Positions 21,220 to 35,226 of a stretch of DNA of 48,740 bases are shown here, one piece after another. The position numbers and the translations under genes were made by a program. Source of the stretch: a virus; IMG/VR virus record IMGVR_UViG_3300034025_000003. One strand, written 5' to 3'. Each line of letters opens with the position of its first letter. The stretch's first letter is position 1. The notes below the pieces were generated by a model. The model saw only the letters and a list, made by a program, of their open reading frames with translations. It made no database searches and had not been told where the DNA came from.

Positions 21220-23049
21220 TCAATGCGTTTCTGCCCACGTGAGTCCGACTTTGGAGTCGCATTCAATCGGGATAGAGTAACCGAAGCTACGTCCGGCTGC
21301 GATAAATGACTCAGAACACAAAACCTTAAATGCCTCGATGTGGTCGTTAAGGACATCTGTTTGCCATTCATCATGGATATCTCCAACTTTAATTGCGTCG
21401 ATGCGTCCACGTCTTTTTCCTTCGTCAACAAAGATCATTGCTTGCTTCATAATACGACTCTCGTCGCCTTGCAGAAGATACGGAATAACCATGTGATCTG
21501 ACGGAACAAGCACTCGTGATCCATCGCAAAGAGTTATTCTACCAGTTCGAGTTAGCTCTTCCTTAAGCCGATTGATAAGCTTAGGTAGTCCCGGAACCTG
21601 CTCAAAGAATAGCAACTTTGCAGCCTTAGCTTCCTTAAGTGACACCTTAGCTTCGTTAGAAATCTTAGCGTCACCAGCACCCATCAACGTTGCGTACGTG
21701 ATGGTCTTTGTCAACGCTCGTGTCGACAGACCCATGTTCTTTTGATTTGCAGAATGAGGGTCTTCAGAAAGAATAGCTTCTGTGAATTTGTCGTCTTTGA
21801 GATAATCAGCAAGAATTCTTAATTGAATACCTTTAGCGTCAACGCCAACGAGAGACCGGTTGCGAACATCCCGACAAGTCCAAACATCCCGAGCTTCGTA
21901 TGTGAAGGCTCCGCTCCTTCCGAGTAACGGCTTCGCATCCTTATCAACTCTAACGGCGGGTATATTAGCAGTGTTAGGCTTATCGTGACGATAACGAAGT
22001 GAGCCAGCAAGCCATAAGTTTCCATGAAGTCTTCCATCCTTATCAATCAAATCAAGCCAGTTACTAACCATGTTACCACGAGCGTTGATAGCAATCCACT
22101 CTGCAAGCTTTTTAACAGCTTCGTTTGGAACTTCTTCAATAAACTCTTTAAGGCTGGGACTTAAATCTCCCTTTTTAGTCGGCTTAGGACTTCCTTTTGG
22201 TGTGAACTCTCGAGGTTTCCAACCGAGTTCAAGCAGTTTTTCAACTCGTTGTTTTGGGCTTCCAAGGTTGAACTCAATCCAATCAAGTGCTTCATATCCT
22301 CCGTCGTCGGTGTGACGAAGCTCTGGGTACTCAGTAAGATGTCGTTCATAGTTCGCACAGTAATCGCCATTAGCCTTGCGTGCTTTCGCAAAGCGTTTGA
22401 CAACCTGTAGGACGGGAGGCCAGTGCTCATAGATTTCATCTTTTAACTTTCGTTCGAGTTCACGAATTTCTGTGTAAAGTTCGTAGGCTCGGGGTACGTC
22501 AATCTGGAAACCGTCGAGTCTTTGTCTGCGGATAATGGCCCACGCTCGGTGTTCAAGCTCACACGATCGATCACTGAAACCAACAGCTCGCATGCGATCA
22601 GAAAGGCGAAGCCATAGACGAACGTTAACCCGGCAATCGTTAAGACAGTAACGAACCATGTCATCAGACAAGCAACTCCAATCACTAAACTCGGTCTTTG
22701 GGAATCCTAGTCGACCTCCCCACGCTTCGAGACTATGGCCGCCAGCCAACCCGGGAGAATACAGCATAGAAAGAATAAAGGTGTCAATAACACGACTAAC
22801 AGGAATCCGAGTACCAACCAAACGGTTGAGAACAGGGACGTCGAATGAGAGTAAGTTATGTCCGACGAAGACACATTTTCTGGTGAGTTGGAGATCAATC
22901 CACTCCCTTATTGTTTTTGGATCGGTGAACGTTAGTTCTTGACCGGTAACGAGGTTGATCGCACACATGCACCAGATAACCTTGGGATCAAGGCCGTCTG
23001 TTTCTATGTCAATTAACCAATATTCTTCGGTGGGTTTATTTAGATAAAT
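21220..23049 (-). CDS. DNA polymerase, family A (T7 gp5-like) with a 3'-5' exonuclease domain; non-canonical start
   Basis: Exo I LIDIETDGL, Exo II GHNLLSFDVPVL, Exo III YCLNDCRV, pol motif A VDAKGIQLRILA, motif B RALTKTITYATLMGAG, motif C IHDEWQ. The first ATG (22968) lies downstream of Exo I. The frame is open up to 23052, and ATT at 23049 sits 9 nt after a GGAGG. Confidence 0.85.
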   Translation of the reverse strand: MYLNKPTEEYWLIDIETDGLDPKVIWCMCAINLVTGQELTFTDPKTIREWIDLQLTRKCVFVGHNLLSFDVPVLNRLVGTRIPVSRVIDTFILSMLYSPGLAGGHSLEAWGGRLGFPKTEFSDWSCLSDDMVRYCLNDCRVNVRLWLRLSDRMRAVGFSDRSCELEHRAWAIIRRQRLDGFQIDVPRAYELYTEIRELERKLKDEIYEHWPPVLQVVKRFAKARKANGDYCANYERHLTEYPELRHTDDGGYEALDWIEFNLGSPKQRVEKLLELGWKPREFTPKGSPKPTKKGDLSPSLKEFIEEVPNEAVKKLAEWIAINARGNMVSNWLDLIDKDGRLHGNLWLAGSLRYRHDKPNTANIPAVRVDKDAKPLLGRSGAFTYEARDVWTCRDVRNRSLVGVDAKGIQLRILADYLKDDKFTEAILSEDPHSANQKNMGLSTRALTKTITYATLMGAGDAKISNEAKVSLKEAKAAKLLFFEQVPGLPKLINRLKEELTRTGRITLCDGSRVLVPSDHMVIPYLLQGDESRIMKQAMIFVDEGKRRGRIDAIKVGDIHDEWQTDVLNDHIEAFKVLCSESFIAAGRSFGYSIPIECDSKVGLTWAETH

Positions 23050-23052
23050 GGT

Positions 23053-23223
23053 TCAAAGCCTCCAATTTTCGATCACAAGAAGCTCTGGCTTTGGGGCGCG
23101 CCTGCTACACATGTAAGTGCGTGTGATAGTGTTGTAGGAATCTACATGCCAGTCAAGATCAAGACTGGCGAACTTACCCCTATAAACTTCAATAGTTTCA
23201 AGTCCATCCGAATTGATCGTCAC
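23053..23223 (-). CDS. WRL-tail small protein A (…PELLVIENWRL)
   Basis: GTG at 23223 is preceded by AGGAG. The ORF ends in VIENWRL-TGA and overlaps the end of the primase-helicase gene by 26 nt. The track start is at 23274. Confidence 0.5.
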   Translation of the reverse strand: MTINSDGLETIEVYRGKFASLDLDWHVDSYNTITRTYMCSRRAPKPELLVIENWRL

Positions 23224-24835
23224 GTTTTGTTTCTCCTGCTTCGAAAGCGATAACTTCCTCGGGATCGAGTTCAACCATGCGTCCTGTCTTACCGTTGTAG
23301 TGCAAATACGAAGCTGGTCCTGTCATACCACTGAACCTATTCTTTTCGACGACGGTTTTGGTGACGTTGCGTCGATAAGGATCAGTTGCTGTCTTGTCAC
23401 GTTCCAGTCGAATAACGATGTTTGCTACTTGCTCAACACCGGCTGTGCCTCGCACGAGTCCTGCTCGATTTTGATGGATAACGCAGATAAGAGCAATGTT
23501 TAGCTCCATGCAAAGTGTTTTAAGCTTGGTACTAATCTCGTCTAGCTGTTTACGCTCATCACCGGATTGATCGGAAACAATGATAGAAAGATGATCCACA
23601 ACAACATACTTACATCCAAGAGCGTGCATGTGACGAACCTTATCAAGGACCGCGTCGACGGTGTTCGACCCAAAATGGTCCCAAATAACAACCCGATCGG
23701 TATTGATAACAGCGTCATAAGCTGCCCGGAGCTCGTCAGTCGTCCGCTCAGTGTCAGGTAGATGATAGGGCTTTGAGTTATGAACAGACATAAGTCCCAA
23801 GGCTGTATCGTGGTTCGGCTCTTCCAGATGAAGGAAGCCAACCCCGTAACCCTTCTCAATAAGCTCTTTGTTGACAAGCAAAGAGTGCTCGATTTCTTTG
23901 ATGTAAGAAGTCTTACCAACGCCTGTTGGTGCATGAACGAGGACAAATTCTGAAAGTCGAAGACCATACGTAAGCTTATTTGTTTCTTCAAACGGTAGCG
24001 GAACAGTGAAGTGGTTCGGACGATTAATGATCGTGTCCCACATTTGCGTACCGAGTATCAAGCCATCAGGCTGATAAGGAACAGCCTTCCACCACTCGTT
24101 TACGAACTGTTTTCCACGACCGTTTAGAAGATATTCATTCGCATCCTTAAACTCTCGAAGAGTTAGTATCTTAGCTTTTCCGGGTTTGAACAGTCCAGCA
24201 ACTTTGATGGCTGCTTCTTGTCCCGGAAAATGCTTTTCCCCTGTCAACGGATTAATCTTAGCTTCGTCACGATCAAAACAAACGATGATGGATTCAAAGC
24301 TATTCAGATACTCGTAGTTGCGTTTACAATCTTCGATCGCAGAGGACGCGCCATGAACGCTTACGGCAGGGAAGGGGGAGATTTGAAACGCTGCCATTGC
24401 ATCGTCCTGTCCTTCCAAGATAGTAATAGCTTTTGCGGAACCTGGGCTAAATGTGTGTTGTCCGAACAGATCAAGGTCTCGTCCTTGTCCCTCGTAGAGA
24501 AACTTTTTACCTGTTTTTCGTATCTTGTTTCCGACGTGAACGCCGTTAGCGAAGACAGGATAGCGAGCTTCAACATCAGACGATGATAGATCAACGCTAA
24601 CGCCGAACCGCGAGATTGTTTCTCGATCAATGCCTCGTTCCTTGAACGCATGGAAAACGTTTGTAAGCGGAGCAAACTCCGAAGATAGTTTCTTAACTGG
24701 AATCTCCTCCTCTTGTCGGCCATTCGATGGCGGAAACTTTTTATCACACGAAAAACATTTTCCCCAGCCTTTCTCATTGATGCTATAAGCATCACTAGAG
24801 ATACCACAGGGACAAGCTTGATGAGTTGTTTTCAA
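23198..24835 (-). CDS. Bifunctional primase-helicase (T7 gp4-like)
   Basis: N-terminal Zn finger (CPCG...CFSC), a TOPRIM region, a DnaB-like Walker A (HAPTGVGKTS) and Walker B (VVVDHLS). TTG start. Confidence 0.9.
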   Translation of the reverse strand: MKTTHQACPCGISSDAYSINEKGWGKCFSCDKKFPPSNGRQEEEIPVKKLSSEFAPLTNVFHAFKERGIDRETISRFGVSVDLSSSDVEARYPVFANGVHVGNKIRKTGKKFLYEGQGRDLDLFGQHTFSPGSAKAITILEGQDDAMAAFQISPFPAVSVHGASSAIEDCKRNYEYLNSFESIIVCFDRDEAKINPLTGEKHFPGQEAAIKVAGLFKPGKAKILTLREFKDANEYLLNGRGKQFVNEWWKAVPYQPDGLILGTQMWDTIINRPNHFTVPLPFEETNKLTYGLRLSEFVLVHAPTGVGKTSYIKEIEHSLLVNKELIEKGYGVGFLHLEEPNHDTALGLMSVHNSKPYHLPDTERTTDELRAAYDAVINTDRVVIWDHFGSNTVDAVLDKVRHMHALGCKYVVVDHLSIIVSDQSGDERKQLDEISTKLKTLCMELNIALICVIHQNRAGLVRGTAGVEQVANIVIRLERDKTATDPYRRNVTKTVVEKNRFSGMTGPASYLHYNGKTGRMVELDPEEVIAFEAGETKRDDQFGWT

Positions 24836-24893
24836 CTTCTACCTTTATCAGTCTACTGTTTAACGTTTAGCTTCTAACAAACTTCTTAAGATT

Positions 24894-24922
24894 ATTATAC
24901 ACAGTTTTGTAGAGGTTGTCAA
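24894..24922 (-). promoter_or_regulatory. Consensus sigma70-type promoter upstream of the primase-helicase gene
   Basis: The minus strand reads GCTTGACA-ACCTCTACAAAACTGTG-TATAAT, a 17-nt spacer with a TGn extended -10. Confidence 0.75.
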
Positions 24923-24930
24923 GCGCTATT

Positions 24931-25176
24931 TTACAGCCTCCAATCCTCGATAAGGGAAGACTCTTTCAACTTAATTCCATACAAAACAAAGTCACTGTCT
25001 CTCAATTCCCGACGTTCGTTCCTATCGGGCATATTGTTCCAATAAAGAACGTAAGGATATCGATCTTTTTGTATCGCCTTGTTTTGGAAAACAGTCAGTT
25101 CGGAACCAGGAGTCCCCCGGTGATGATAAAACCAAAGATAGTCTTCTAGAACAACAGTATCGCCGACTTTAATCAT
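24931..25176 (-). CDS. WRL-tail small protein B (…SSLIEDWRL), SH3-like N-terminus
   Basis: 81 aa, MIKVGDTVVL..., with a GGAGGA RBS. It ends in IEDWRL-TAA. No gene follows for about 90 nt; only the promoter lies there. Confidence 0.7.
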   Translation of the reverse strand: MIKVGDTVVLEDYLWFYHHRGTPGSELTVFQNKAIQKDRYPYVLYWNNMPDRNERRELRDSDFVLYGIKLKESSLIEDWRL

Positions 25177-25372
25177 ATCGTCCTCCGAAATCTTCAGTGT
25201 TTATTGACAGCAACTCTTCAGCTGTAGGTTCAGCTTCTTCGCTGCTTTCTTCAGGCTCTTCGCCAAAGACAGACGCAATTACTTCAAGACAAGTACCACA
25301 AGGGTCTATGTCTCCGTGATCGCTGTTGAAACTAAAGCTTGCCATTTCACGATCACAAATGTGACACTTCAT
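25169..25372 (-). CDS. Small zinc-ribbon / acidic protein
   Basis: MKCHICDREM...DPCGTCLEV followed by an acidic tail. Confidence 0.55.
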   Translation of the reverse strand: MKCHICDREMASFSFNSDHGDIDPCGTCLEVIASVFGEEPEESSEEAEPTAEELLSINTEDFGGRYD

Positions 25373-25511
25373 GCTCGTCGATCCAACTCAAGAAGAAGTT
25401 CAATAAAGCCATTAAAAATAGGGGCTATCAGATTTTTCCTGTGCTTTAAATAAAAGATTTGCTTGTCTTTTAGAAAGGTTCGTTGATTGTCTGTTAATCG
25501 CATTTGGGAGT

Positions 25512-25760
25512 TTATCCTTCTATTTCTGGTTCAGAGGAACATTCAATGACTAGACGTGCGCCACACGCTAGAAGAGAGGCATGAGGGGAATAGACAAGAG
25601 TAGCCCCATCAGGAAGCCTAACACGGTTCCCGTATATAGGCCGTCCGCTAAACCCTCGTTGTATGCGGATTGGAGGTTCGGGTCGTTCGGCACGAATGTT
25701 TCTCCGGATGATGTGTTGATTAACGTGGACGTACCACTTACGATTGTCCATTATAACCAT
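25512..25760 (-). CDS. Hypothetical protein (start uncertain)
   Basis: The ORF contains WYVHVNQHIIRRNIRAERPEPPIRIQRG...LLACGARLVIE. I could not assign a function. Confidence 0.5.
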   Translation of the reverse strand: MVIMDNRKWYVHVNQHIIRRNIRAERPEPPIRIQRGFSGRPIYGNRVRLPDGATLVYSPHASLLACGARLVIECSSEPEIEG

Positions 25761-25965
25761 TTCCGTAAGTTTCGTCAAGCCCTAACTCACGTTCGAGTGG
25801 ACGCAATTCACGAAGAGCTGCCTCACGGAATCCTTTTGGTCGCGAGAAGTCTTTAACATTTGCTCGCAGTGTACGAATCTTTTCACAGGCTGCGTGGTAA
25901 GACGTCTCCTGCGCCAATCGCTGAAATTCAGAAGGCGAGCGAGTAAAGAAACGGTCAGTCATCAT
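25738..25965 (-). CDS. Hypothetical protein
   Basis: ATG at 25965 overlaps the TGA of WRL protein C (CTATGATG). Confidence 0.5.
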   Translation of the reverse strand: MMTDRFFTRSPSEFQRLAQETSYHAACEKIRTLRANVKDFSRPKGFREAALRELRPLERELGLDETYGNGYNGQS

Positions 25966-26204
25966 AGTCTCCAATTTTCGATTGTTACTGGTGATACAAC
26001 TTCACAGAAGACATCCCACGCAGCAGGTTGTTTATTTCTGAAAAGACCAGAGTTAACTCCCTCAAGATAAATGATAGCGTTAGCTCTTGTCCCTCCTCTT
26101 AACACCATTTGTCTAGATTCATCAATGCTTACGATTACGCCCTCCTGACCAGCGTAGATACTAGGTGCAAGACATCGAACAGTTTGCCCAACAACAAAAT
26201 TCAT
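25962..26204 (-). CDS. WRL-tail small protein C (…SPVTIENWRL), SH3-like N-terminus
   Basis: ATG at 26204 overlaps the stop of D (ATGA). MNFVVGQTVRCL...; ends in IENWRL-TGA. Confidence 0.7.
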   Translation of the reverse strand: MNFVVGQTVRCLAPSIYAGQEGVIVSIDESRQMVLRGGTRANAIIYLEGVNSGLFRNKQPAAWDVFCEVVSPVTIENWRL

Positions 26205-26443
26205 AGTCTCCACTCTTCGATTGTAGACGGGCCTTTGTTAATGATGTTCCCGTATTTATGCGACCAATGAGGATGAGGGGTACCATCTATTTTTACGATC
26301 AGAAAATCATTAAACTCGTTAATGTCAACAACAACGCAAGGAATTCCATCGTAACTATTAAGAAAAATTTCCTGTGATCTCTTTATTGCTCTCGAAGGAT
26401 TATTTTCGAACTCTATCTCAGCGTCCCAATCAATTGATTTCAT
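26201..26443 (-). CDS. WRL-tail small protein D (…GPSTIEEWRL)
   Basis: ATG at 26443 overlaps the end of the ATP-grasp gene. MKSIDWDAEIEF...; ends in IEEWRL-TGA. Confidence 0.65.
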   Translation of the reverse strand: MKSIDWDAEIEFENNPSRAIKRSQEIFLNSYDGIPCVVVDINEFNDFLIVKIDGTPHPHWSHKYGNIINKGPSTIEEWRL

Positions 26444-27182
26444 TTGAGATAGCCTGAAACGCTTGGGCGTAATCTTGGACTGTCTGACCCTCGAGACCGC
26501 ACGCTGTGTTAACTTCGAGAACATAGGCCATCTGTCGACGATCATTCCAAATAACGTCCACCCCGCCAAAATCAAGGCCAAGCGAATCAACAGCGGCAAT
26601 TGAATGCTCAAGGACACAATTAGGAGCGTCAACGCCATCGCGAGCGAATACAAAACCGTTAGCGTGATTACGTATCTGCCAGTTTGGGTCATCTACATCA
26701 AGCCTTCTCGCCTTGCGCTGCACAGCCACAACTCGACCTCGGACAACGTGTACTCGGTATTCGTCTTGCTTCGGTACGTAGCGGACGTAGAGCGGCGCGT
26801 TAACAAGCTCTTGTGCGCTATTCGCAACAACGATGCCAACACCGCTATGGCCGTTAAGAACAGTACGACAGAATACAGGATACGCTTCAGCAGGAATTTC
26901 TTCTTGCAACTGCCAAAAATCAGGGACATTTACGCCAGCCTCCTGCATTCTGTTGAATGCCCAAAGTTTGTTTGCGGCAGTAGCTACCGCATCAGAAGTA
27001 TTGAGGACTATTCCGCCTCGACCGTAAGGTACAGACGAACCCCAATTGATAATCAGATCATCGCGACGAGGAATGAACGTCGAACCTTGCAGTCGCAAAA
27101 CGCGTCCACGTGGGAGAGCGCCCGCAAGGGCTCGTGCTGATCGTGAACCTTGCTTATACGGATAGACGCGAAAACGAGGCAC
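26430..27182 (-). CDS. ATP-grasp ligase (RimK-like, phage type)
   Basis: NKLWAFNRMQEAGVNVPDF, GHSGVGIVV, EYRVHVVRGRVVAVQRK, WQIRNHANGFVF and LGLDFGGVDVIW...YVLEVNTACGL are typical ATP-grasp blocks. The GTG start overlaps the TAG of E. Confidence 0.85.
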   Translation of the reverse strand: MPRFRVYPYKQGSRSARALAGALPRGRVLRLQGSTFIPRRDDLIINWGSSVPYGRGGIVLNTSDAVATAANKLWAFNRMQEAGVNVPDFWQLQEEIPAEAYPVFCRTVLNGHSGVGIVVANSAQELVNAPLYVRYVPKQDEYRVHVVRGRVVAVQRKARRLDVDDPNWQIRNHANGFVFARDGVDAPNCVLEHSIAAVDSLGLDFGGVDVIWNDRRQMAYVLEVNTACGLEGQTVQDYAQAFQAISNEIN

Positions 27183-27406
27183 TACAATCTCCAATATTCA
27201 ATGACGTGACTGATTCTCTCAACAGAGCCAGTATTCCATTCTCCTCCGTTACCACTGACGGAGGTGTCTCCGACACGAGTCCAAGGCGATCGATCCCAAA
27301 TTACTTGGAAGTATCCCTTACGTCTAGCAATTGCTTCGACAGTGCCGACACAACCGTGAAAGTCTGTTCCATTAGTGCATCGAATACGATCACCTACTTG
27401 AATCAC
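27182..27406 (-). CDS. WRL-tail small protein E (…SHVIEYWRL), SH3-like N-terminus
   Basis: GTG at 27406 overlaps the TGA of F. (M)IQVGDRIRC...; ends in IEYWRL-TAG. Confidence 0.65.
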   Translation of the reverse strand: MIQVGDRIRCTNGTDFHGCVGTVEAIARRKGYFQVIWDRSPWTRVGDTSVSGNGGEWNTGSVERISHVIEYWRL

Positions 27407-27669
27407 AAGCGCCAATCCTCTACAACAGTTGGACTAAACTTGTTTGAAATTCTTCCAAACTTAGCCTGACAAGTGTCCGTAACAATTATTCCGTCAGCTG
27501 AGCAAAAGAAATAACGAATTAGCGAGTCAGACTTACGGTAGTTTACATCTTCAAGAATCCAGTGGTTTTGGTTATACGGGCTTATAGAGCTTTCATGAGG
27601 ATGATGTAACTTCGACAGTTTAATCGGAAGCCCGGTTTCACTTTCTAGTGGCAACGAAAAGTCGATCAT
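27403..27669 (-). CDS. WRL-tail small protein F (…SPTVVEDWRL)
   Basis: ATG at 27669 overlaps the TGA of the amidoligase (ATGA). It ends in GAG GAT TGG CGC TTG TGA. Confidence 0.65.
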   Translation of the reverse strand: MIDFSLPLESETGLPIKLSKLHHPHESSISPYNQNHWILEDVNYRKSDSLIRYFFCSADGIIVTDTCQAKFGRISNKFSPTVVEDWRL

Positions 27670-28652
27670 CCGAAAGCATCCTCTGCTTCCCACGCCATCG
27701 GAGGAACATTATCTAAAAAGATTCTCTTGATCTTAGGCTTCAACGCTCCAAAAGGATTAGGAACGTAAACCTTTTCAATTTCCGGCAGAACCGAAGCCCA
27801 CGGAATGACGTAAAGGATGGGCTGAATACGACGATAACCATCTCGAACAAGCTGACCCGCGTTGTCAACAGCTAGCAACTCGTCAAGGATCGGAAGCCCT
27901 GCAAAAACAGTCTCGAGGAACCCGATACCACCAAGCGTAGAAAAGTCGACGCCGATGATAGATGGGTCGCTGTACGTTCCTGCGTGAGTTTTAATACGAT
28001 CGATAGCTTCGATCCACTTTTCAAACTCACCGACGTTCTCAACAGCTCGCATCAAACGAATTTCGAGCGTGCCAAGTGTGCGCAAGCAAGCAGGATTAAG
28101 GGCCAAATAACGCATGTCTCGACTGTACGAAAAATCACCAGTCTTGAAGCCACGAATCCATCCGTCAACAGCGTAGGAGCTGTCACTCATACGGAGGCTA
28201 AACAGATTGCCTGCTCGAGTCGGACCACACCACGCAGCAAGAACGTCTTCGAACATTCCCCACAACGCCACAAAAGCTGCCATCGTGTTAACTTTGACGG
28301 AACGCATGTTAACGTGAACATGCGTCGAAGTGCGGTAGCTGTTGTTAAGTCGGGTGCCGGTGAAAGTGAAAGTATCGAAGAGCGAGCTGACGTTAGCGAT
28401 AGCTTGAGCCTTTGACACAGCGCCGTCAGTAACGTATTCCGAACCGCCTCGTAGACTGTTGTCGTCGTGACGAACCCAATTCGGAATGTTACCCGGAAGG
28501 CCAGTACCCTCAACTTCTATTTCGATACCGTAGTCACCTACTTGAGTTGTGTAGTCGAAACCAACGCCGCGACACAACTCAATTCCGTACGCCTTCGGTT
28601 CGAAAGACGACTTGCCCTTTTTATTTTTGAAAACACTCAAAACATTTGACAT
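27666..28652 (-). CDS. Amidoligase (Amidoligase_2 / glutamine-synthetase-like COOH-NH2 ligase)
   Basis: YGIEIEVEG, HDDNSLRGGSEYVT, TSTHVHVNM and GTLEIRLM match the conserved blocks of the putative amidoligase family. Confidence 0.8.
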   Translation of the reverse strand: MSNVLSVFKNKKGKSSFEPKAYGIELCRGVGFDYTTQVGDYGIEIEVEGTGLPGNIPNWVRHDDNSLRGGSEYVTDGAVSKAQAIANVSSLFDTFTFTGTRLNNSYRTSTHVHVNMRSVKVNTMAAFVALWGMFEDVLAAWCGPTRAGNLFSLRMSDSSYAVDGWIRGFKTGDFSYSRDMRYLALNPACLRTLGTLEIRLMRAVENVGEFEKWIEAIDRIKTHAGTYSDPSIIGVDFSTLGGIGFLETVFAGLPILDELLAVDNAGQLVRDGYRRIQPILYVIPWASVLPEIEKVYVPNPFGALKPKIKRIFLDNVPPMAWEAEDAFG

Positions 28653-28653
28653 C

Positions 28654-28938
28654 TCACAACCTCCAATTCTCAATTACAGCTGGGCCAACGTTTACAATAC
28701 GTCGGTAATTTGGGTTACCTTCCGAATACCCAAACTGCCCGCCAATTTCGTTAAAAAACCCCAAGTCCATAGCTTTGTAATAAGGGTCTGATCGTCTGGC
28801 AATGTCGTACTGACTCCTTACAAAAATTCTGCGGCCGTACTTTTTTTTACGGTGAGGGCTCGTGGCCGCAAGAACTTTGTAGATTTCACAAGGAAGTCCG
28901 TCGTCGTACTCAATCGGACGATCTATATCGATGAGCAT
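28654..28938 (-). CDS. WRL-tail small protein G (…GPAVIENWRL)
   Basis: 94 aa. The ATG overlaps the upstream TAA (TAATG). It ends in IENWRL-TGA. Confidence 0.7.
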   Translation of the reverse strand: MLIDIDRPIEYDDGLPCEIYKVLAATSPHRKKKYGRRIFVRSQYDIARRSDPYYKAMDLGFFNEIGGQFGYSEGNPNYRRIVNVGPAVIENWRL

Positions 28939-29561
28939 TACATAATCTCCGGATTATCTGGCAAATTCGGACATTCGATAATAGATTCCATCAGATATTG
29001 CCGATCGTTGTTGAGATACAACTGATTACGGAAAATCACGCCAACTTCTTCGTGATTGTTGAACAGTGTAAGGCCGCCACTTTCAGACATCGCGATAGCA
29101 AAACTACGCGAAACTGCGATTGACGATCCGGGAACAATGTGTTCGAGTGTGTCAGACCAAGAAGGATAAACGTTAGCAACCATTTCTACGAACGCAGGAG
29201 ACTTAGTCACCACATCGAAAGGAATGCGAACGCTGCCCTTCAAGGTCGAACAATTGAAATTCTGATTACAGAGACCTTGGCGCTGCTGTCGAGCCGGGAG
29301 TCGTTGAGCAAAGCTAACGTTGAACCCGTATTCACGACTGAAATAGTTCACAAAACCCAGAGGAATCGTCTGGAATCTATTAAATCGTGGATCAAGAAGA
29401 TTAGCAGTTTGCTCTTGACCATCGAAAGGGTGGGGAACGAACCCCACCTCAATCGCATTCGGACCTCGACCACGCAGGGTTGTAACCGTAACTGGCAAAC
29501 CGTCGAAGCCAACTACTGTATCCAGCAACCGTCGTTCTGCTTCTTCACGTGTATCGTACAT
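28938..29561 (-). CDS. Hypothetical protein of the ligase island
   Basis: 207-aa ORF with a GAGGTG RBS. No motif recognised. Confidence 0.6.
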   Translation of the reverse strand: MYDTREEAERRLLDTVVGFDGLPVTVTTLRGRGPNAIEVGFVPHPFDGQEQTANLLDPRFNRFQTIPLGFVNYFSREYGFNVSFAQRLPARQQRQGLCNQNFNCSTLKGSVRIPFDVVTKSPAFVEMVANVYPSWSDTLEHIVPGSSIAVSRSFAIAMSESGGLTLFNNHEEVGVIFRNQLYLNNDRQYLMESIIECPNLPDNPEIM

Positions 29562-29625
29562 TTACTGGCACCTCATTAGATTCTCAAGAAGACAACGAAT
29601 ATAGTTTATCTCTCCTCGAGTCACG

Positions 29626-30549
29626 TTACGCCTTCTTCTTAGTCTTCGACGCGGTGGCCTTAACTTCTTCCTTTTCAGCCTTAATTCGTTCGGCTTCTTC
29701 AGGGCTCACTTCTTCGATCTTCGGCAACGTAATCCCGAGGGTCGAAAGGTAAGTCTTTGCGTAAGACACATCACCCGAATTGATGATAGATTGAATGTCT
29801 ACGCCCTCCCTTTCAGCTTTAAGATACTGCGGAGTAGTCGACTGCATATCCTTGACAGCACGACTTACGAGGCCATGAATAAAACGCCGGAGAGGCGTGT
29901 TCAAAATCCAAGCGTTTGAAGGTGTGCGATATTCGACACCGTAGCTCTTCGGCCGATAAGCACCCGCCTTGCCGTACAGCTTACGACGTTCTGTGTCGCT
30001 ATCGATGCACGTCATGCCGAGACCGACGAATACGTCAAGATTACGAATGAACGCGCGGCAAACTTCGACGTGATCCGGGTGATCGACCGGAATGTCAGCG
30101 CCCCAGCCTACGTGAATGTGACCAGCTGCCGACCGCTGTCCGCTGTCTCCGTCAGGGCGAGGATTGGGCTCCGAAGGATCGATGCTGTACGCGCAGTAAT
30201 CAGGGTCACAGCCGAGTTCCTTAGCCTCTTCAGGAAGGCTCTCGTAGTAGTCCTTGTCGAAGAACACAGTCGGAGAAGGTTCGATCTGAAGATTAGACGG
30301 AATAATCGAACGCAGCTCCGACAGCACGCCAACAATGTTGTTGTTGAAGGCCGAGAAATCATCGATCGGAACAGGGTTCGTGTTGAATTCAGCGGCCAAT
30401 CCATCCGGCTGAACAGCGCCTGCGCTAACCTTATGCGGCGCTTTCTTCGAGCCCGGAACAAGGTCGTGTGCACTGACGGGCTTGCCAGTCGCGCGATCCT
30501 TGACGAAGATTTCTGGATCGCAACCAATCGTGAATTTGAAAGTAGACAT
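29626..30549 (-). CDS. COOH-NH2 ligase (phiEco32-like type 2 family)
   Basis: FTIGCDPEIFV...VSAHDLVPGSKKAPHKV..GAVQPDGLAAEFNTNPV and AAGHIHVGW resemble the phage COOH-NH2 ligase family of the GCS/GS superfamily. Confidence 0.7.
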   Translation of the reverse strand: MSTFKFTIGCDPEIFVKDRATGKPVSAHDLVPGSKKAPHKVSAGAVQPDGLAAEFNTNPVPIDDFSAFNNNIVGVLSELRSIIPSNLQIEPSPTVFFDKDYYESLPEEAKELGCDPDYCAYSIDPSEPNPRPDGDSGQRSAAGHIHVGWGADIPVDHPDHVEVCRAFIRNLDVFVGLGMTCIDSDTERRKLYGKAGAYRPKSYGVEYRTPSNAWILNTPLRRFIHGLVSRAVKDMQSTTPQYLKAEREGVDIQSIINSGDVSYAKTYLSTLGITLPKIEEVSPEEAERIKAEKEEVKATASKTKKKA

Positions 30550-31814
30550 TACGCTGCAAGCTCCTTATTAGCGTTGTTAGTAAAACAAGTTGAACAGAGA
30601 AGGGCTGAAGTCGACAACCATTTGCCGATACTTCCAGTCAATGCGTCGTTGTAGTCGACGTCTTTTTGGCAGAACGAACAACATTGGTCCGTCTTTGCGT
30701 ACTCTCCGGCGTCGATTACGTCGCCTCGAAAGTCGAGTAGCTCATTATCAAACTTTTGCGGCAATGCGCGCGAGACTTCCGAGCCATTTCTTTTGCTGTC
30801 GTGCGCCAAGCTGAGCAAAGGCTTCTTCGCTCGGATAACCGCTTGGGAGACTATCTTGTCCTTTTCGGACTCGCCAGCTAAGGGCGATTGTGCTGTAGAC
30901 TTCGACTCGACCGCTGTGGGCGTGATAACCTGCGGGTTTTGCGGGAGTGCCTTCACGGCGTTCCCTACGTCTCCCTTTTCCCCAGGAATGTTCGGATCGT
31001 CGTCCAGATTGTCCTCCCACCCCCACGGTGACCGGTACGGGTTGTGAAAATTTACGGCAGACTTAATTGCCACCCCTCCTTCGAGCTTTTCGTTTCGAAC
31101 GAACGTGAAAACGTTTTTCTTGTCGAGAGGATCGATAGTTACAGACCACCAACTATCCGTCTCAAGGGGCGCAACGAAAAACTCTGGTTCGTCTTTGCCT
31201 GCTTGATTCGCGAGCTTTTGACCGTGCTTTCCGCAAGCCACGGTAATCATCCACGTTTCAGACGCCCAAAAGACTTTACGATAGTCTTCGCTGAAGGCGT
31301 AGAACAACGTGCGTTGATCGTTGCGAAGGAAGTTCAGCGTGTCGTCAGCAGTATCGTGCCAGACAAGAGCGTAAGCTCCTTCGACCTGTTCGATAGTGTC
31401 ACGAACGCCGATTTCAGCGAAAGATGAGTACAGTCGTTGACTGTCGATTGCGCCAGTTTCGCCTCCCGGCAACTTGTAGTAGTTACGAAGTGTTCCGTTA
31501 TGAACACCTGAAAACGTTCCGTAGTTAAACGGATGCGCTGTTTGCTTTGTGATGTTGCCGACAGTTGCTTTACGAGTATGGCCAATCATGGCCTTCGTCG
31601 TACCAGCAGTGATTATGTCGTAAGACTTTCGATCGTACAAGTCGAAAGGATTTCCAATATCCTTTACGATGCGAACATCGCCTGTCGGCAATCGTGGAAT
31701 AAACGCGACACCTGTAGAATCTCGACCACGAACAGTCGAGAAGACAAGCATCATTTCAAGAATATCTTTATCGCGGTAGCTGAGGTCCCCAGCGCAACCC
31801 ACTAAACCACACAA
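30549..31814 (-). CDS. Class II (Ntn) glutamine amidotransferase with a C-terminal Cys-rich region
   Basis: A TTG start is followed by Cys (M)CGLVGC. RGRDSTGVA, GHTRKATVG and HPF..GVHNGTL are also present. The C-terminus carries CCSFC...CSTC. Confidence 0.8.
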   Translation of the reverse strand: MCGLVGCAGDLSYRDKDILEMMLVFSTVRGRDSTGVAFIPRLPTGDVRIVKDIGNPFDLYDRKSYDIITAGTTKAMIGHTRKATVGNITKQTAHPFNYGTFSGVHNGTLRNYYKLPGGETGAIDSQRLYSSFAEIGVRDTIEQVEGAYALVWHDTADDTLNFLRNDQRTLFYAFSEDYRKVFWASETWMITVACGKHGQKLANQAGKDEPEFFVAPLETDSWWSVTIDPLDKKNVFTFVRNEKLEGGVAIKSAVNFHNPYRSPWGWEDNLDDDPNIPGEKGDVGNAVKALPQNPQVITPTAVESKSTAQSPLAGESEKDKIVSQAVIRAKKPLLSLAHDSKRNGSEVSRALPQKFDNELLDFRGDVIDAGEYAKTDQCCSFCQKDVDYNDALTGSIGKWLSTSALLCSTCFTNNANKELAA

Positions 31815-31967
31815 TTGAGGTCTCCTAGAAAATTAAACATTGACAACTTAAGCCAAACGAAGGATACACGAAGAATAATGTTGCCGTTATTTGTTATGAA
31901 TGCAACACGATTAAATCATACGGAACAGCTCAACGTCATCGTCAAATTGCTGATTGGATGGATTCTT

Positions 31968-32051
31968 TTACACGGACACCGCAAGAACAAGAAGAGCGAT
32001 AGAACTGACGATGCCGATACCTGCGCCGACGCTACAACTAAAATTCTTCAT
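31968..32051 (-). CDS. Possible 27-aa hydrophobic peptide
   Basis: ATG overlaps the TAA of the class I GATase (TAATG). MKNFSCSVGAGIGIVSSIALLVLAVSV. Confidence 0.25.
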   Translation of the reverse strand: MKNFSCSVGAGIGIVSSIALLVLAVSV

Positions 32052-32845
32052 TACTTGATTTCCTTCTTGATGAATTCGACTTCACTGATAGGCTTCAGAT
32101 TGTCAGCAAAGAATCCGTTCTCGACAAAGTTCTTGACTTCGTTGAGACACCACATCGTGTATTCTGGATATCCGCCGACTTCCGGATGACCCTGCACAGC
32201 AATCGCACGAATGTTCGGATAAACTGCTGCTTCGAGATCGCGATGAGCGTTGCTTTCGAGCGTCTTATTCTGATTGCTGTAGCGAGCGCCAAGGCCAGCT
32301 TGAGCGGCAAACGCCAGCGGAAACGTTGCTTCGTTCGGAATACACATTTGGTGATGCATCGAAGAGACCCACCAATCAGGTTTTGAACCGTCAGACAACT
32401 CAATCTTGTGTCGCCAACCGTGGTTGTGAACGTCTTGCCAGAGCTTACCACCGTTCATGACGTGCAGGAACTGCATGCCACGACAGATGCCAAACATAGG
32501 CTTGTCGAGCTCAATAGCTTTCGCAAACACGTCAGCTTCGCGAGCGTCGCGAGCTACGTTGAAGTACGTACCCTTAAGCGGCTTTTCACCGTACAACGAC
32601 GGATCGACGTCTTCGCCACCAGAGAAACAAAGAAGATCAGCTTCTTCGATCGACTTAGCTTTCGTGCAGTTAGCCTTAGCAAACATCTCGACGATGCCTG
32701 AAAGAAAGCAGCTACCGACGATAAACACTTTGTATCCGAGCTTCGGATAGACGTCGTCGATGCTATGTTCGCGGTTAGTCTTCGAGTTTTCGTCAGGAAG
32801 AAGACCTAGCTCTCGAAGACGTTCGGCTGTGACAGGAGTGTTCAT
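32051..32845 (-). CDS. Class I glutamine amidotransferase-like / peptidase C26 (gamma-glutamyl hydrolase type)
   Basis: PMFGICRGMQFLHV supplies the nucleophile elbow and AVQGHPE supplies the His-Glu of the triad. Confidence 0.8.
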   Translation of the reverse strand: MNTPVTAERLRELGLLPDENSKTNREHSIDDVYPKLGYKVFIVGSCFLSGIVEMFAKANCTKAKSIEEADLLCFSGGEDVDPSLYGEKPLKGTYFNVARDAREADVFAKAIELDKPMFGICRGMQFLHVMNGGKLWQDVHNHGWRHKIELSDGSKPDWWVSSMHHQMCIPNEATFPLAFAAQAGLGARYSNQNKTLESNAHRDLEAAVYPNIRAIAVQGHPEVGGYPEYTMWCLNEVKNFVENGFFADNLKPISEVEFIKKEIK

Positions 32846-33321
32846 GCTTTTACCTCGATGTGTACGTAGTTAAATTCGATTCCGCCGTCAGGCTTGAAAG
32901 GGTTCGGCAGCTTGCCGGGGTCCTTAGGCATACGCGCCATCGGTTTTGGATGTTCAAACTGCGTAAGAGTCGACGTGCCGGGATACTCAAACGGAGGCTT
33001 GACGTACTTAACGCCGCGCATTTCACAGCGAACGAAAAGATTTACCCAGCTATTGTGCTGACCGTTGTTTGTGCGACCAGCAAGAACAAAGCCCAATCCC
33101 GCGAGAATTTCGAGCATCTTCGGATTAGTCTTGCATTGAGAATCGTTCAGCGTGCAGACGACCATCTGATTGCCTGTCGGGCGACTCTTGCCGCTGTCGT
33201 CGATGCCCTGAATCTTTTGCACCATCTCTCGAAACGTCGAGTCGGTGGCAGTTGTGCCGAGTGGGAAATTGTAGATGATCGAAGCGCCGCAACAATTCGG
33301 CATAGCGGTCATTGTAACCAT
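32842..33321 (-). CDS. CCG-motif protein, paralogue 3
   Basis: MVTMTAMPNCCGASIIYNF...ILAGLGFVLAGRTNNGQHNSWVNLFV. It shares both motif blocks with 34186..34737 and 34744..35226. Confidence 0.7.
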   Translation of the reverse strand: MVTMTAMPNCCGASIIYNFPLGTTATDSTFREMVQKIQGIDDSGKSRPTGNQMVVCTLNDSQCKTNPKMLEILAGLGFVLAGRTNNGQHNSWVNLFVRCEMRGVKYVKPPFEYPGTSTLTQFEHPKPMARMPKDPGKLPNPFKPDGGIEFNYVHIEVKA

Positions 33322-33331
33322 GTTGAAATCC

Positions 33332-33469
33332 TCATAGGTTTGAGGGGTTGATGATAGATTGCTGTTTCAGCAGCGTTTCAGCTAGTTGACCTACTGTCAG
33401 TCCTTTGCGTTCGTTGGGTGAAAGACCGAAGTAAGCAGAACGAGCACGGCGATAAGTTGCGATATTCAT
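33332..33469 (-). CDS. Possible 45-aa ORF
   Basis: ATG overlaps the TGA of H (ATGA). MNIATYRRARSAYFGLSPNERKGLTVGQLAETLLKQ... Confidence 0.35.
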   Translation of the reverse strand: MNIATYRRARSAYFGLSPNERKGLTVGQLAETLLKQQSIINPSNL

Positions 33470-33702
33470 AGCCTCCAATCCTCTATGATTGTCTCTCTAG
33501 AAACTAAAACTGGTGTCCAAGAACCCTTATCAGGGGCGTCCAAGTCGAACATAGCTATTTCGTTTAGCCCTCTAAATACAGGAGCATCACCAGTCGCGTA
33601 AACAATTTTATTGATTGGAAGGATTCTAGTTATCGTCCATTCGCCGTACTCTCTCTTAGCTGCTCCGCTAGCAAAAGTACAGACGTCTCCTACTTGAAAC
33701 AT
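33466..33702 (-). CDS. WRL-tail small protein H (…RETIIEDWRL), SH3-like N-terminus
   Basis: ATG at 33702 overlaps the TGA of I (TGATG). MFQVGDVCTF...; ends in IEDWRL-TGA. Confidence 0.7.
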   Translation of the reverse strand: MFQVGDVCTFASGAAKREYGEWTITRILPINKIVYATGDAPVFRGLNEIAMFDLDAPDKGSWTPVLVSRETIIEDWRL

Positions 33703-33926
33703 CAAAGTCTCCAATCTTCTATTTCAATTTCGATCGGGAAGATAAGAGTCCTGCAACCATCCTGTGATTTGCCTGATTTGTTCACAGTGATGAAGCACGG
33801 CTGTGCGCTAGTCTTAGCTCGACCCTCGTAAACTGCCGGGAAACGATGATCGAGACTGCCGAGTCCGACTAGCTTCCAAGTTCTGTTTGATTGGTCAAGA
33901 GCTTCGAGTGGATACCGTTGGCTCAC
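33702..33926 (-). CDS. WRL-tail small protein I (…IEIEDWRL)
   Basis: GTG at 33926 overlaps the TGA of J, the same junction geometry as F/E. It ends in GAA GAT TGG AGA CTT TGA. Confidence 0.6.
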   Translation of the reverse strand: MSQRYPLEALDQSNRTWKLVGLGSLDHRFPAVYEGRAKTSAQPCFITVNKSGKSQDGCRTLIFPIEIEIEDWRL

Positions 33927-34186
33927 AACCGCCAATCCTCTATAACTCTTAGCCCTATGCGTCGGATAGGAAGCTTAAGAGGATAGATGGTGTCCCAGAC
34001 AGAGCCATCACTAGCGTTCCAAACTCCTTTACCGACACCGACGGTTACGAAAGAAGTATCTGGTTTTGTACACCCAACAATTAAAGACAGACCGTCTATT
34101 TCAAAGTCTTCGCAGTAGTCGGAGCAAACGTAAATTAGCCTGCCGTCTTCTAGATCAAACGGGCCTTCGTTCCAATGCAGGTTCAT
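33923..34186 (-). CDS. WRL-tail small protein J (…LRVIEDWRL)
   Basis: ATG at 34186 overlaps the TGA of CCG paralogue 2 (TGATG). It ends in GAG GAT TGG CGG TTG TGA. Confidence 0.65.
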   Translation of the reverse strand: MNLHWNEGPFDLEDGRLIYVCSDYCEDFEIDGLSLIVGCTKPDTSFVTVGVGKGVWNASDGSVWDTIYPLKLPIRRIGLRVIEDWRL

Positions 34187-34737
34187 CAGACATTCTCCGT
34201 CCACCGTGTTGTGCCGTCACTGTAGACGCTGAGACAATCAATTCGTTGGGCACGCGGAGCAGCAGTTTCTGCCTGTTCGCGAGAAGGCCAGCCAGCAGCC
34301 GAACGCCCACTTGTACGATAAACGTTGTAGAACGCTGAATGAACGATGGTTCGTATGTCGTACGTGATGAACTCTTGTCGTAGAACAGTCCGGCGGCCAA
34401 CCCAATCCGGATGTTCAACAGACATTGAGTTAGTTACGCCGTTACGATGGAAAACGTAGCATACGCGACCGCTGTTTGCGTTCAGAAATCGATTTACGAG
34501 GACAAAACCCAACTCGTTAAGAAGAGTTAGCCAACCACCTTCTGGCGACAGGATGAAGCCATCCATCTGACGTTGCGAGAGAACCGCTTCAAGAAGACGA
34601 TTTTGTGTAGGTGTGACGTTCGGCTGTCTGTCGTGTTGGGCGACGAGTTGTCGGACTTCGTCGTGGGTTGAGTGATCGAACCCCCAAAGGGTGTATATTC
34701 CACAACAACCGCCGCCATGCGCTGTAATTTGAACCAC
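34186..34737 (-). CDS. CCG-motif protein, paralogue 2
   Basis: MVQITAHGGGCCGIYTLWGF...LLNELGFVLVNRFLNANSGRVCYVFH. Confidence 0.7.
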   Translation of the reverse strand: MVQITAHGGGCCGIYTLWGFDHSTHDEVRQLVAQHDRQPNVTPTQNRLLEAVLSQRQMDGFILSPEGGWLTLLNELGFVLVNRFLNANSGRVCYVFHRNGVTNSMSVEHPDWVGRRTVLRQEFITYDIRTIVHSAFYNVYRTSGRSAAGWPSREQAETAAPRAQRIDCLSVYSDGTTRWTENV

Positions 34738-34743
34738 GATAGA

Positions 34744-35226
34744 TTATCCTTCAGGTTGTTCGACACCATCAATGAATTCAACGACACGGACAACATTTGG
34801 ACTGGCCGCGTAAGAAGCTGCATCACGACTGTCGAAAGTACCGCGACCAAAACCGTTGCGGTAGAGGTTGCGATAAGTCCGTACAGGTTCCGGCACTGGT
34901 GCCAAGACAGGCGCTTCTTGTTCACGCAGTGTTGCTGCGTCGAAGAAACCGGGTGCGATCAGCTCACGATGGCTGACGAACATGTTGCATCGATTGCCGC
35001 TGTTGACGTTGATCCACGAACAGACGTTGACGTAGAAGAATTCGCGTAGACTTGCTGCTAATTCTTCTACCTGCCAGTCGACGAGAATGAGCACCGTCGC
35101 TTGACCGTGACCTGCGTGCTGGCGGAGAGCGGCTATTTCATCGTCGATGTCGATATCTTCGTCCATAAGAAAGTCGGTCAAGATGTTCGCGCCGCAGCAC
35201 GAAGGAAACTCGTTGAGATCAGCCAT
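34744..35226 (-). CDS. CCG-motif protein, paralogue 1
   Basis: MADLNEFPSCCGANILTDF...LREFFYVNVCSWINVNSGNRCNMFV. Confidence 0.7.
   Translation of the reverse strand: MADLNEFPSCCGANILTDFLMDEDIDIDDEIAALRQHAGHGQATVLILVDWQVEELAASLREFFYVNVCSWINVNSGNRCNMFVSHRELIAPGFFDAATLREQEAPVLAPVPEPVRTYRNLYRNGFGRGTFDSRDAASYAASPNVVRVVEFIDGVEQPEG

Follow-up and report, generated by a model that had tools for sequence, protein, structure and literature searches.

Why small proteins of more than one kind should all end in the same six residues, and whether it is the peptide or the DNA encoding it that is being conserved, is the question raised by a locus in IMGVR_UViG_3300034025_000003, an IMG/VR virus record of 48,740 nucleotides (nt) whose whole length is here called the window. 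At 23053-34186, exactly ten minus-strand open reading frames (ORFs A to J; Table 1) of 56-94 amino acids (aa) end in [IV]-E-[DNEY]-W-R-L and a stop codon. They had been picked out in an earlier sequence-only reading, and its ten ORFs, their coordinates, the tail pattern and the codon counts all proved exact on re-check. We find it highly probable that the peptide is under selection and that the same bases act as the ribosome-binding site (RBS) of the next gene. The whole proposal, in which a dual-coded tail would also be a docking handle shared by these miniproteins, is put forward with moderate confidence.

The shared peptide and the selection on it

The window is an essentially complete podophage genome of ~48.7 kb, with identical contigs of 48.1-48.8 kb in several public samples, and its replication genes and five-enzyme island put it near the Zobellviridae. 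On public contigs identical to the window, an independent gene caller called nine of the ten ORFs with the same boundaries; it missed I (GTG start), which is on account of that omission the least certain of the ten. In a six-frame translation of the window, W-R-L-stop occurred ten times, each time as E-x-W-R-L-stop, on the minus strand and in no other frame, whereas shuffled sequence has 0.6 such endings on average and at most 3. We conclude that a Zobellviridae-like podophage has here ten genuine small early/middle genes.

At the DNA level, the likeness among the tails is a degenerate direct repeat of ~22 nt with 72-86% identity, confined to the six tail codons and the stop; it always lies in frame at the ORF end, and identity beyond the coding constraint or out of frame was not seen. 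Within it, arginine is encoded by AGG (four times), AGA (four times), CGC and CGG, leucine by CTT (twice), CTG, CTA (three times) and TTG (four times), and the stop is TGA in eight ORFs, TAA in one and TAG in one. Four members (C, D, F and G) also have (S/G)-P-x-x before the tail, as had been described.

An exhaustive profile search of 1.84 billion representative proteins returned only one non-self homolog, P0006, which ends in ...IIEDWRL. Its contig (L117, 5.3 kb) is syntenic with the window at 24-29 kb, the ATP-grasp and primase being 71% and the amidoligase 57% identical, and carries eight small genes that all end in [IT]-I-E-[DE]-W-R-L, with bodies only 20-45% identical to those of their best partners in the window. 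Across the 18 tails of the two genomes, five of six residues are invariant (I/V, E, W, R and L), encoded by all six Arg codons (AGG 6, AGA 6, CGG 2, CGA 2, CGC 1, CGT 1), five Leu codons (CTG 6, CTA 4, TTG 4, CTT 3, CTC 1), three Ile codons (ATC 7, ATT 6, ATA 4) and both Glu codons (GAA 9, GAG 9). ORF B and its homolog on the second contig (l8) both end in IEDWRL with four synonymous nucleotide differences, a change from AGG to CGT included.

Other phages carry equivalent tails (Table 1), among them the LEN-type lineages, and an unbiased test was made over six genomes by choosing copies that resembled their own genome's consensus at the nucleotide level and had a stop directly after them. Mismatched bases were synonymous in 77 cases and not in 34, against a neutral expectation of 17% synonymous (binomial p ~1e-33); leaving out the noisy CW02 set, the ratio was 65 synonymous to 9 nonsynonymous. 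By codon position, mismatches were distributed 37/11/76 in true copies with a stop and 171/156/168, with no periodicity, in chance matches without one. The earlier claim that selection acts on the peptide rather than on a DNA repeat is thus backed both by a second genome and by the comparison of synonymous with nonsynonymous change.

Copies with no start codon beside them are informative in their own right. ORFs A and B retain the peptide though no start adjoins, and terminal copies elsewhere, which keep the peptide and may lose the Shine-Dalgarno (SD) element, read TTA GAA AAT AAA and CTA GAA AAT AAA in VR7901, CTC GAA AAC GAT in Pecta and GAT GAC GTT TTC CTC in L004. The sequence-only reading had held that conservation of the nucleotide string only, and only where a start follows, would speak against a function of the peptide; neither was found, which favours such a function, and the lack of codon periodicity and loss without a start that would mark conservation by an RNA signal alone are not seen in the tails.

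The same bases as a ribosome-binding site

In eight of the ten ORFs the stop codon overlaps or abuts the next start (ATGA in C, D and H; GTGA in F and J; TGATG in I; TAGTG in E; TGAgATG in G); A and B, with no start next to the stop, are terminal copies. All eight junctions have an SD-like GGAG(G) or AGGA at a spacing of 3-9 inside the tail, as TGGAGR and/or GAGGAT. Over the six genomes, all 61 copies that have a start beside them contained the GGAG/GAGG core, as compared to 8 of the 11 that have no such start (Fisher p = 0.003), and the tail junctions are among the strongest SDs of the genome, where many genes have none.

Codon choice shows how the two demands meet. Because CGN codons for Arg destroy TGGAG, the alternative GAGGA in the Glu-Asp codons is of interest: in the WRL lineage it was found in 5 of 6 tails with CGN and in 3 of 12 with AGR (p = 0.04). 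A single tail among the 18 has neither SD element in its six codons, and the next gene there starts inside the tail, with GGAG just upstream. The tail is dual-coded, the peptide and RBS constraints visibly trading off in codon choice, and the RBS role both limits that choice and accounts for a motif that runs right up to the stop codon. The earlier argument from codon variation was therefore right as to selection on the peptide but overlooked the tail DNA as the RBS of the next gene.

In the mechanism that we propose, I-E-[D/N]-W-R-L-COOH, usually after G/S-P-x-x, is held by strong purifying selection, and the same bases give the SD (TGGAGR or GAGGAT) and frame the next start via ATGA/GTGA-type overlaps; this mRNA layer fixes the reading frame of the motif, anchors it at the stop and biases the choice among synonymous codons. 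We are confident of these two steps taken together.

The junctions themselves could be read as the whole story, the tail being a pure nucleotide signal (an RBS/coupling junction or a recombination linker) and the peptide its by-product. Beyond the abutting starts and the unbroken series of SD cores, the string GAG AAY NNN TRA TG is nearly invariant in LEN-type lineages, as is the junction string TGGAGAAYNNNTRATG in a jumbo myophage and Citrovirus, and a CTGGAGAATAAATAAATG copy that belongs to no ORF of 35 aa or more precedes the ATP-grasp gene of VR7901. Furthermore, Glu (GAG) has become Ile (ATC/ATA) in three independent terminal copies (CVT22 gp63, ...SLINE; CVT22 gp35, ...KIINE; the last gene of the jumbo-phage array, ...KLIN). 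However, in the WRL lineage each degenerate position varies and the peptide stays the same: all six Arg codons occur, and GAA, which is no SD element, encodes the Glu in 9 of 18 tails. Three-base periodicity of the mismatches is confined to copies at the end of an ORF, and terminal copies retain the peptide though the SD may be lost. Positions 1-2 of the Ile codon are fixed as well, although this codon, 15-17 nt upstream of the start, plays no part in the RBS. Other stop-start junctions of the window (...PEIM TAATG, ...KELAA TAATG and others) have no such tail, and 22 nt of 72-86% identity would be a poor substrate for homologous recombination.

Coupled junctions with an embedded SD (ATGA/TAATG) are common in phage operons, and the tails resemble them in the 8 of 10 that overlap or abut a start, in the SD and in a choice of synonymous codons that is limited by the need for one SD-like element. 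Ordinary junctions of this kind, however, keep no six-residue peptide across 18 genes and two diverged genomes, as the tails do, and here residues without an RBS role (Ile at -6, Leu at -1, and Glu where it is GAA) are invariant and terminal copies persist.

Bodies, equivalent tails and candidate functions

The two N-terminal classes recognised before were confirmed as M-x-x-V-G-[DQ]-x-V in B, C, E and H and P-[ILF]-[ED]-x-x-D-G in F, G and J, the latter weaker in I. Across phages the recurring body classes are KxGDxV, LP[DE]G / PxExxDG and PEWATH, each with its own genome's tail. The notion of different domains attached to one tail thus holds in that there is more than one kind of body, but these are really two or three recurrent, co-travelling miniprotein classes. 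Homology searches in large databases (5.8e9 proteins) gave only self-matches for G and H, which are ORFans, and no tailed protein of the window, CVT22 or the jumbo phage had a match above threshold in Pfam or PHROGs. Sub-threshold likenesses were found for C with KOW (PF00467, E = 0.0047) and, in PDB profile searches, for the first class with uL24, NusG-KOW, KIN17 and PsaE (E = 0.03-1, over the N-terminal 40-50 residues only); the second class had no match in the PDB. The KxGDxV class is probably a KOW/SH3-like barrel. A 301-aa protein from the profile search, P0010, is a fusion of three KVGD domains with linkers of the type ...LELMEEEKD|MKFKVGD...; it looks like a tailed array that has lost its stops, the former SD region now being a Glu/Lys-rich linker.

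The equivalent tails share a core, hydrophobic-[E/D]-[N/D/E], followed by one to three lineage-specific residues, and homologous bodies differ in their last residue by genome (LENK vs LENE vs LEND). In CVT22 (L002), a single LENK at 6573-6794 stands among 17 LENE tails on a body homologous to another phage's LENK gene, and may be a recently exchanged cassette. A scan of IMG/VR that was independent of the ligases found an array of 18 genes on a jumbo myophage contig of ~360 kb (ENA ERZ27256707 k141_1274529, the same phage as IMGVR_UViG_3300024331_000007). Its bodies are of the KxGDxV and LP[DE]G classes, and next to it are encoded a helicase, glycosyltransferases, a T4 gp13-like protein and a sheath protein; smaller tailed arrays lie on contigs of 27 kb and 85 kb.

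Megablast of the region against 50,697 phage records gave no match, and the public contigs that carry G (L028-L033) are identical to the window, with zero population variation. A tandem-WRL DNA pattern had 21 matches in IMG/VR, all chance or an unrelated DNA repeat (L009); among the matches listed, the same pattern in JGI metagenomes gave only chance matches and repeats, and a pattern for LEN junctions in tandem, run on 185,579 genomes of bacteria and archaea, gave only chance matches and CRISPR-like or other repeats. L009, L333 and L358 are tandem-repeat or CRISPR-like arrays that match the degenerate search patterns by chance and are unrelated to the tails.

As for what the peptide does, the third step of our proposal is that it would be a lineage-specific C-terminal short linear motif, the one common handle by which diversifying miniproteins reach a single shared partner, built in related phages on the common hydrophobic-[E/D]-[N/D/E] core. 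We hold this step only tentatively. It is suggested by each genome's tail being on the same body classes, by the last residue differing between genomes and by the G/S-P turn before the motif; uniformity within a genome combined with difference between relatives suggests co-evolution with one reader, or mutual compatibility. Phyletic profiling that started from the window and from CVT22 brought up no gene confined to genomes with tails, and for this reason the partner would more likely be a host factor, or the miniproteins, than a dedicated phage enzyme.

The same absence of a co-varying gene weighs against the dual-coded handle, as do several other observations. An AlphaFold2 model of H (four-paralog alignment) was all-beta with a predicted local distance difference test score (pLDDT) of 40 and uninterpretable; the tail may be free or packed against the body. 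The conserved C-terminus of the jumbo phage is ~11 residues long (EEAMLYKLENA) and amphipathic-helix-like, and could be part of the fold rather than a free motif. In the LEN-type lineages the last codons hardly vary at synonymous positions, with GAG AAC GCA TGA almost invariant, and the Ile substitutions in terminal copies suggest that the Glu is partly required by the SD; in these lineages the RBS may thus dictate part of the 'tail'. Finally, the uniform last residue within a genome could come from homogenisation of junctions by recombination.

Among other explanations, the one that fares best gives the tail a role in structure or self-association: it would be the final strand or helix of a common fold, or one exchanged among miniproteins, with no external reader. 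Mutual compatibility would then account for uniformity within a genome, and no reader gene was found; tail presence also tracks the miniprotein classes, KxGDxV being essentially absent from tail-less genomes, and the amphipathic jumbo-phage terminus and the helix-cap-like S/G-P prefix are of the expected kind. We nonetheless consider it unlikely, since the same hexapeptide sits on at least two body classes without detectable similarity, the weak KOW/SH3 likeness stops at the N-terminal 40-50 residues, six residues are short for an oligomerisation interface, and an intramolecular role alone leaves unexplained why close relatives differ uniformly in a last residue of K, E or D.

The neighbourhood invites a second explanation, that the tail is the recognition or reaction site of the ATP-grasp or amidoligase enzymes, which would extend, amidate or conjugate its C-terminus or its Glu/Asp side chains. 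RimK and ATP-grasp enzymes of the tubulin-tyrosine-ligase type act on protein C-termini, the tails are acidic near the free carboxylate, and seven genomes have their tailed genes interleaved, within a single operon, with a RimK-like ATP-grasp (annotated in relatives as an S6-modification protein), two amidoligases and two glutamine amidotransferases (GATases)/gamma-glutamyl hydrolases, CW02 having a gamma-glutamyl cyclotransferase as well. The sequence-only reading had proposed a docking or recognition peptide for these ligases, or a Pup- or ubiquitin-like conjugatable C-terminus, and had advised recording co-occurrence with ATP-grasp and amidoligase genes. The distribution of tails and island backs none of these roles. 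Seven genomes (PA11, HHBS10_2, T4S1, T5S1, Slicky01, L005 and L006) have the complete island back-to-back with no tailed genes, no island enzyme lies within 10 kb of the jumbo array of 18 genes (in the 20 kb inspected of the 360-kb contig), another tailed array (L112) has none in 7.6 kb, and the tailed genes of Citrovirus are spread across the replication module, lying between primase and polymerase and also further on.

The chemistry of the tails points the same way. In having ATP-grasp and glutamine-synthetase-like amidoligases beside proteins with acidic C-termini, the locus resembles RimK/S6 and Pup-PafA; a RimK substrate would be expected beside an ATP-grasp gene, as here, and to end in Glu-Glu, but the tails of the window end in Arg-Leu, and those of relatives in EN[EKDAV] or DEVF[LEQR]; a last residue of L, K, E, D, V or A gives neither the Glu-Glu of S6 nor the Gly-Gly-Gln/Glu of Pup. 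Ubiquitin-like conjugation is likewise contradicted by the lack of a Gly-Gly or Gly-Gly-Gln end and by bodies that are many divergent ORFans, the ten of the window included, rather than a single conserved modifier. Peptide-modifying roles of the phiEco32-type ATP-grasp/amidoligase island were reportedly predicted by Iyer et al. in 2009, a paper cited in PMC10580990. A link of the tails to the ligases is not supported, having nothing in its favour beyond adjacency, and we judge it quite unlikely.

A third explanation is that the tail determines stability toward host proteolysis, either as a degron (for ClpXP, ClpAP, Lon or an adaptor) that would time the loss of early proteins or as a polar cap that would shield small proteins of marginal stability from degradation governed by the C-terminus; this would be one form of the handle model. 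The C-terminal ssrA tag, ...DENYALAA, is recognised by ClpX and SspB, and E-N-W-R-L, E-N-A and E-E-N-V loosely resemble its E-N-Y-A-L; the last ~5 residues reportedly set protein half-life strongly in E. coli (Parsell, Silber and Sauer are said to have found this in 1990). A host reader would also suit the lack of a phage reader and variants specific to host lineages, and all carriers are small early proteins. The resemblance to ssrA and Lon degrons is short, however, and charged ends (ENE, ENK, END) would be expected to act on stability in the opposite way to hydrophobic ones (WRL, VFL), so that this role is distinctly improbable.

Least likely of all is the pure nucleotide reading, which the synonymous variation, the periodicity and the terminal copies largely refute. 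Further candidates were rejected: a phage sigma-factor promoter, by the frequency of the motif and its conservation at the peptide level; a RegA/RegB-type RNA operator, by the 3-periodic variation and the terminal copies; a frameshift or read-through signal, as no extended ORF follows; a cassette repeat of the T4 promoter-early stem-loop (PeSL) type, the repeat being only 22 nt long, 72-86% identical and in frame with synonymous differences; and a precursor of graspetides or other ribosomally synthesised and post-translationally modified peptides (RiPPs), there being no Thr/Ser/Lys pattern in the six conserved residues and the bodies being of 50-90 aa with KOW/SH3-like N-termini.

Among the known motifs that could be tested, the tail matched no degron, clamp-binding, SSB or sorting motif, as had been stated before, and the comparisons are nevertheless instructive. 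Like the sorting tags of LPXTG/sortase, PEP-CTERM/exosortase and the type IX secretion system C-terminal domain (T9SS CTD), it is a short C-terminal motif on many unrelated proteins, uniform per genome and variable between lineages; unlike them, it has no signal peptide or transmembrane segment after the motif, and its carriers are cytoplasmic-looking proteins of 56-94 aa. No sortase or exosortase was found among the window genes scanned, nor a co-varying gene by phyletic profiling. With the tips of single-stranded DNA-binding proteins (E. coli SSB, ...DDDIPF; the acidic tails of T7 gp2.5/gp4 ending in Phe) it shares a free C-terminus that is acidic and then hydrophobic or aromatic, and a T7-like replication module. 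It differs in its sequence, I-E-D-W-R-L without Pro-Phe, in having no long disordered linker and in its ten carriers, and the Citrovirus tails end in charged residues (ENE, ENK, END); no tailed protein matched an oligonucleotide/oligosaccharide-binding (OB) fold or SSB family. Poxvirus ankyrin/PRANC proteins and similar viral adaptors, whose variable bodies bind targets and whose F-box-like end docks to a single host machine, are an analogy of design only, being diversifying paralogs and early viral genes with a conserved C-terminal handle, which in the phage tails is only 6-11 residues long and not a folded F-box.

Neighbouring features and implications

Table 1. Coordinates of the tailed ORFs, of neighbouring features in the window, and of equivalent tails in other phages.
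Feature	Genome or contig	Position	Strand	Remarks
ORF A	window	23053-23223	-	56 aa (same length from the independent gene caller); tail LLVIENWRL; terminal copy; DNA polymerase start 85 nt downstream of stop; 5' end overlaps primase 3' end by 26 nt (23198-23223)
Sigma-70-type promoter	window	24894-24922	-	TTGACA, 17 nt, TATAAT; 12/12 matches; directly after the stop of B
ORF B	window	24931-25176	-	81 aa; KxGDxV class; tail SSLIEDWRL; TAA stop; terminal copy
ORF C	window	25962-26204	-	80 aa; V-G-Q variant of KxGDxV class; tail SPVTIENWRL; stop overlaps ATG of next gene (25738-25965)
ORF D	window	26201-26443	-	80 aa; tail GPSTIEEWRL; stop overlaps ATG of C; start overlaps ATP-grasp 3' end by 14 nt (26430-26443)
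phiEco32-type amidoligase island	window	26430-32845	-	interleaved with D-G; context only
RimK-like ATP-grasp	window	26430-27182	-	26430-27194 matches PF08443, E = 2.8e-4, 21 bits, exactly at the Pfam cut-off
ORF E	window	27182-27406	-	74 aa; KxGDxV class; tail SHVIEYWRL; TAG stop overlaps ATP-grasp GTG start; homolog on L117 is P0006
ORF F	window	27403-27669	-	88 aa; PxExxG/DG class; tail SPTVVEDWRL; Arg is CGC; SD is GAGGAT in the E-D codons; stop overlaps GTG start of E
Amidoligase	window	27666-28652	-	
ORF G	window	28654-28938	-	94 aa; PxExxDG class; tail GPAVIENWRL; TGGAGG 7 nt before amidoligase ATG; ORFan
phrog_11055 protein	window	28938-29561	-	
COOH-NH2 ligase	window	29626-30549	-	
Class-II GATase	window	30549-31814	-	
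Peptidase C26/class-I GATase	window	32051-32845	-	
ORF H	window	33466-33702	-	78 aa; KxGDxV class; tail ETIIEDWRL; stop overlaps ATG of a 45-aa gene; ORFan
ORF I	window	33702-33926	-	74 aa; GTG start; tail IEIEDWRL; stop overlaps ATG of H
ORF J	window	33923-34186	-	87 aa; PxxxEDG class; tail LRVIEDWRL; Arg is CGG; SD is GAGGAT; stop overlaps GTG start of I
Equivalent tail	UViG_3300035156			[LM]-D-[ED]-V-F-x, 6 copies; closest relative retaining the whole island
Equivalent tail	CVT22			L-E-N-E, 17 copies
Equivalent tail	VR7901 and two uncultivated virus genomes (UViGs)			L-E-N-K, 9-12 copies
Equivalent tail	Pecta			(Q)-L-E-N-D, 15-16 copies
Equivalent tail	Oyster phage T2S1			[ML]-E-N-E, 8 copies
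Equivalent tail	CW02			L-E-[ED]-N-V, 5 copies
Jumbo myophage array	L238	9538-13151		~18 consecutive genes of 58-84 aa; 4-nt ATGA overlaps; ends ...[ED]-E-A-M-L-[YW]-x-L-E-N-A
Terminal copies with Ile	CVT22 (L002)	7657-7869 and 21448-21636		
Terminal copy with Ile	L238	13148-13597		

The perfect promoter right after the stop of B indicates that B ends a translational unit, and the same TTGACA follows the B homolog on L117. A second, near-perfect (11/12) sigma-70 consensus promoter lies at 25750-25778 on the minus strand, inside the early/middle region. The overlaps of A with the primase (26 nt) and of D with the ATP-grasp gene (14 nt) are in other frames. Read from 26692, D would be 163 aa long and overlap the ATP-grasp gene, but this extended version is probably spurious. 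In several Zobellviridae a phage sigma factor is encoded between primase and DNA polymerase; no homolog was detected in the window when 21220-24835 was compared with CVT22, PA11 and HHBS10_2, and only the 56-aa ORF A lies between the two genes. On the minus strand there are also three paralogous proteins of 159-183 aa (32842-33321, 34186-34737 and 34744-35226) that bear ...C-C-G... near the N-terminus and match nothing in Pfam or PHROGs. Homologs of two were found, only in the closest relative (L004), and the middle one ends in W-T-E-N-V with a TGATG junction, a tail of the CW02 type.

Embedded SD elements and shared C-terminal tags are each of a known kind, but their combination, a lineage-specific tag selected as a peptide on many miniproteins that is also the RBS of the next gene, appears to be new; no description of shared C-terminal tails in these phages was found in the full-text literature searched. 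We also considered, as rather a long shot, an 'address code' in which each lineage would give its host-targeting miniproteins one handle into a single effector (a host protease, a chaperone, a replisome hub or an island ligase). In such a code, which we think doubtful, handle and reader would co-evolve, giving WRL, VFL, ENE, ENK, END, ENV and ENA.

Uncharacterised functions in host takeover and anti-defence reside mainly in small early phage proteins, whose fast evolution makes them next to impossible to classify. A tag on 8-18 such proteins per genome provides a sequence handle by which ORFans can be found and grouped, and the tail peptide of 6-10 residues an experimental hook to a common partner. 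The tails are in addition a clean natural example of dual coding, with peptide and RBS in the same bases. If the tag does recruit a common host machine, it would represent a new general strategy of phage-host interference, and an 'address code', if true, would be the bacterial-virus counterpart of the poxvirus PRANC/F-box adaptors, with its handle written in the RBS of the next gene.

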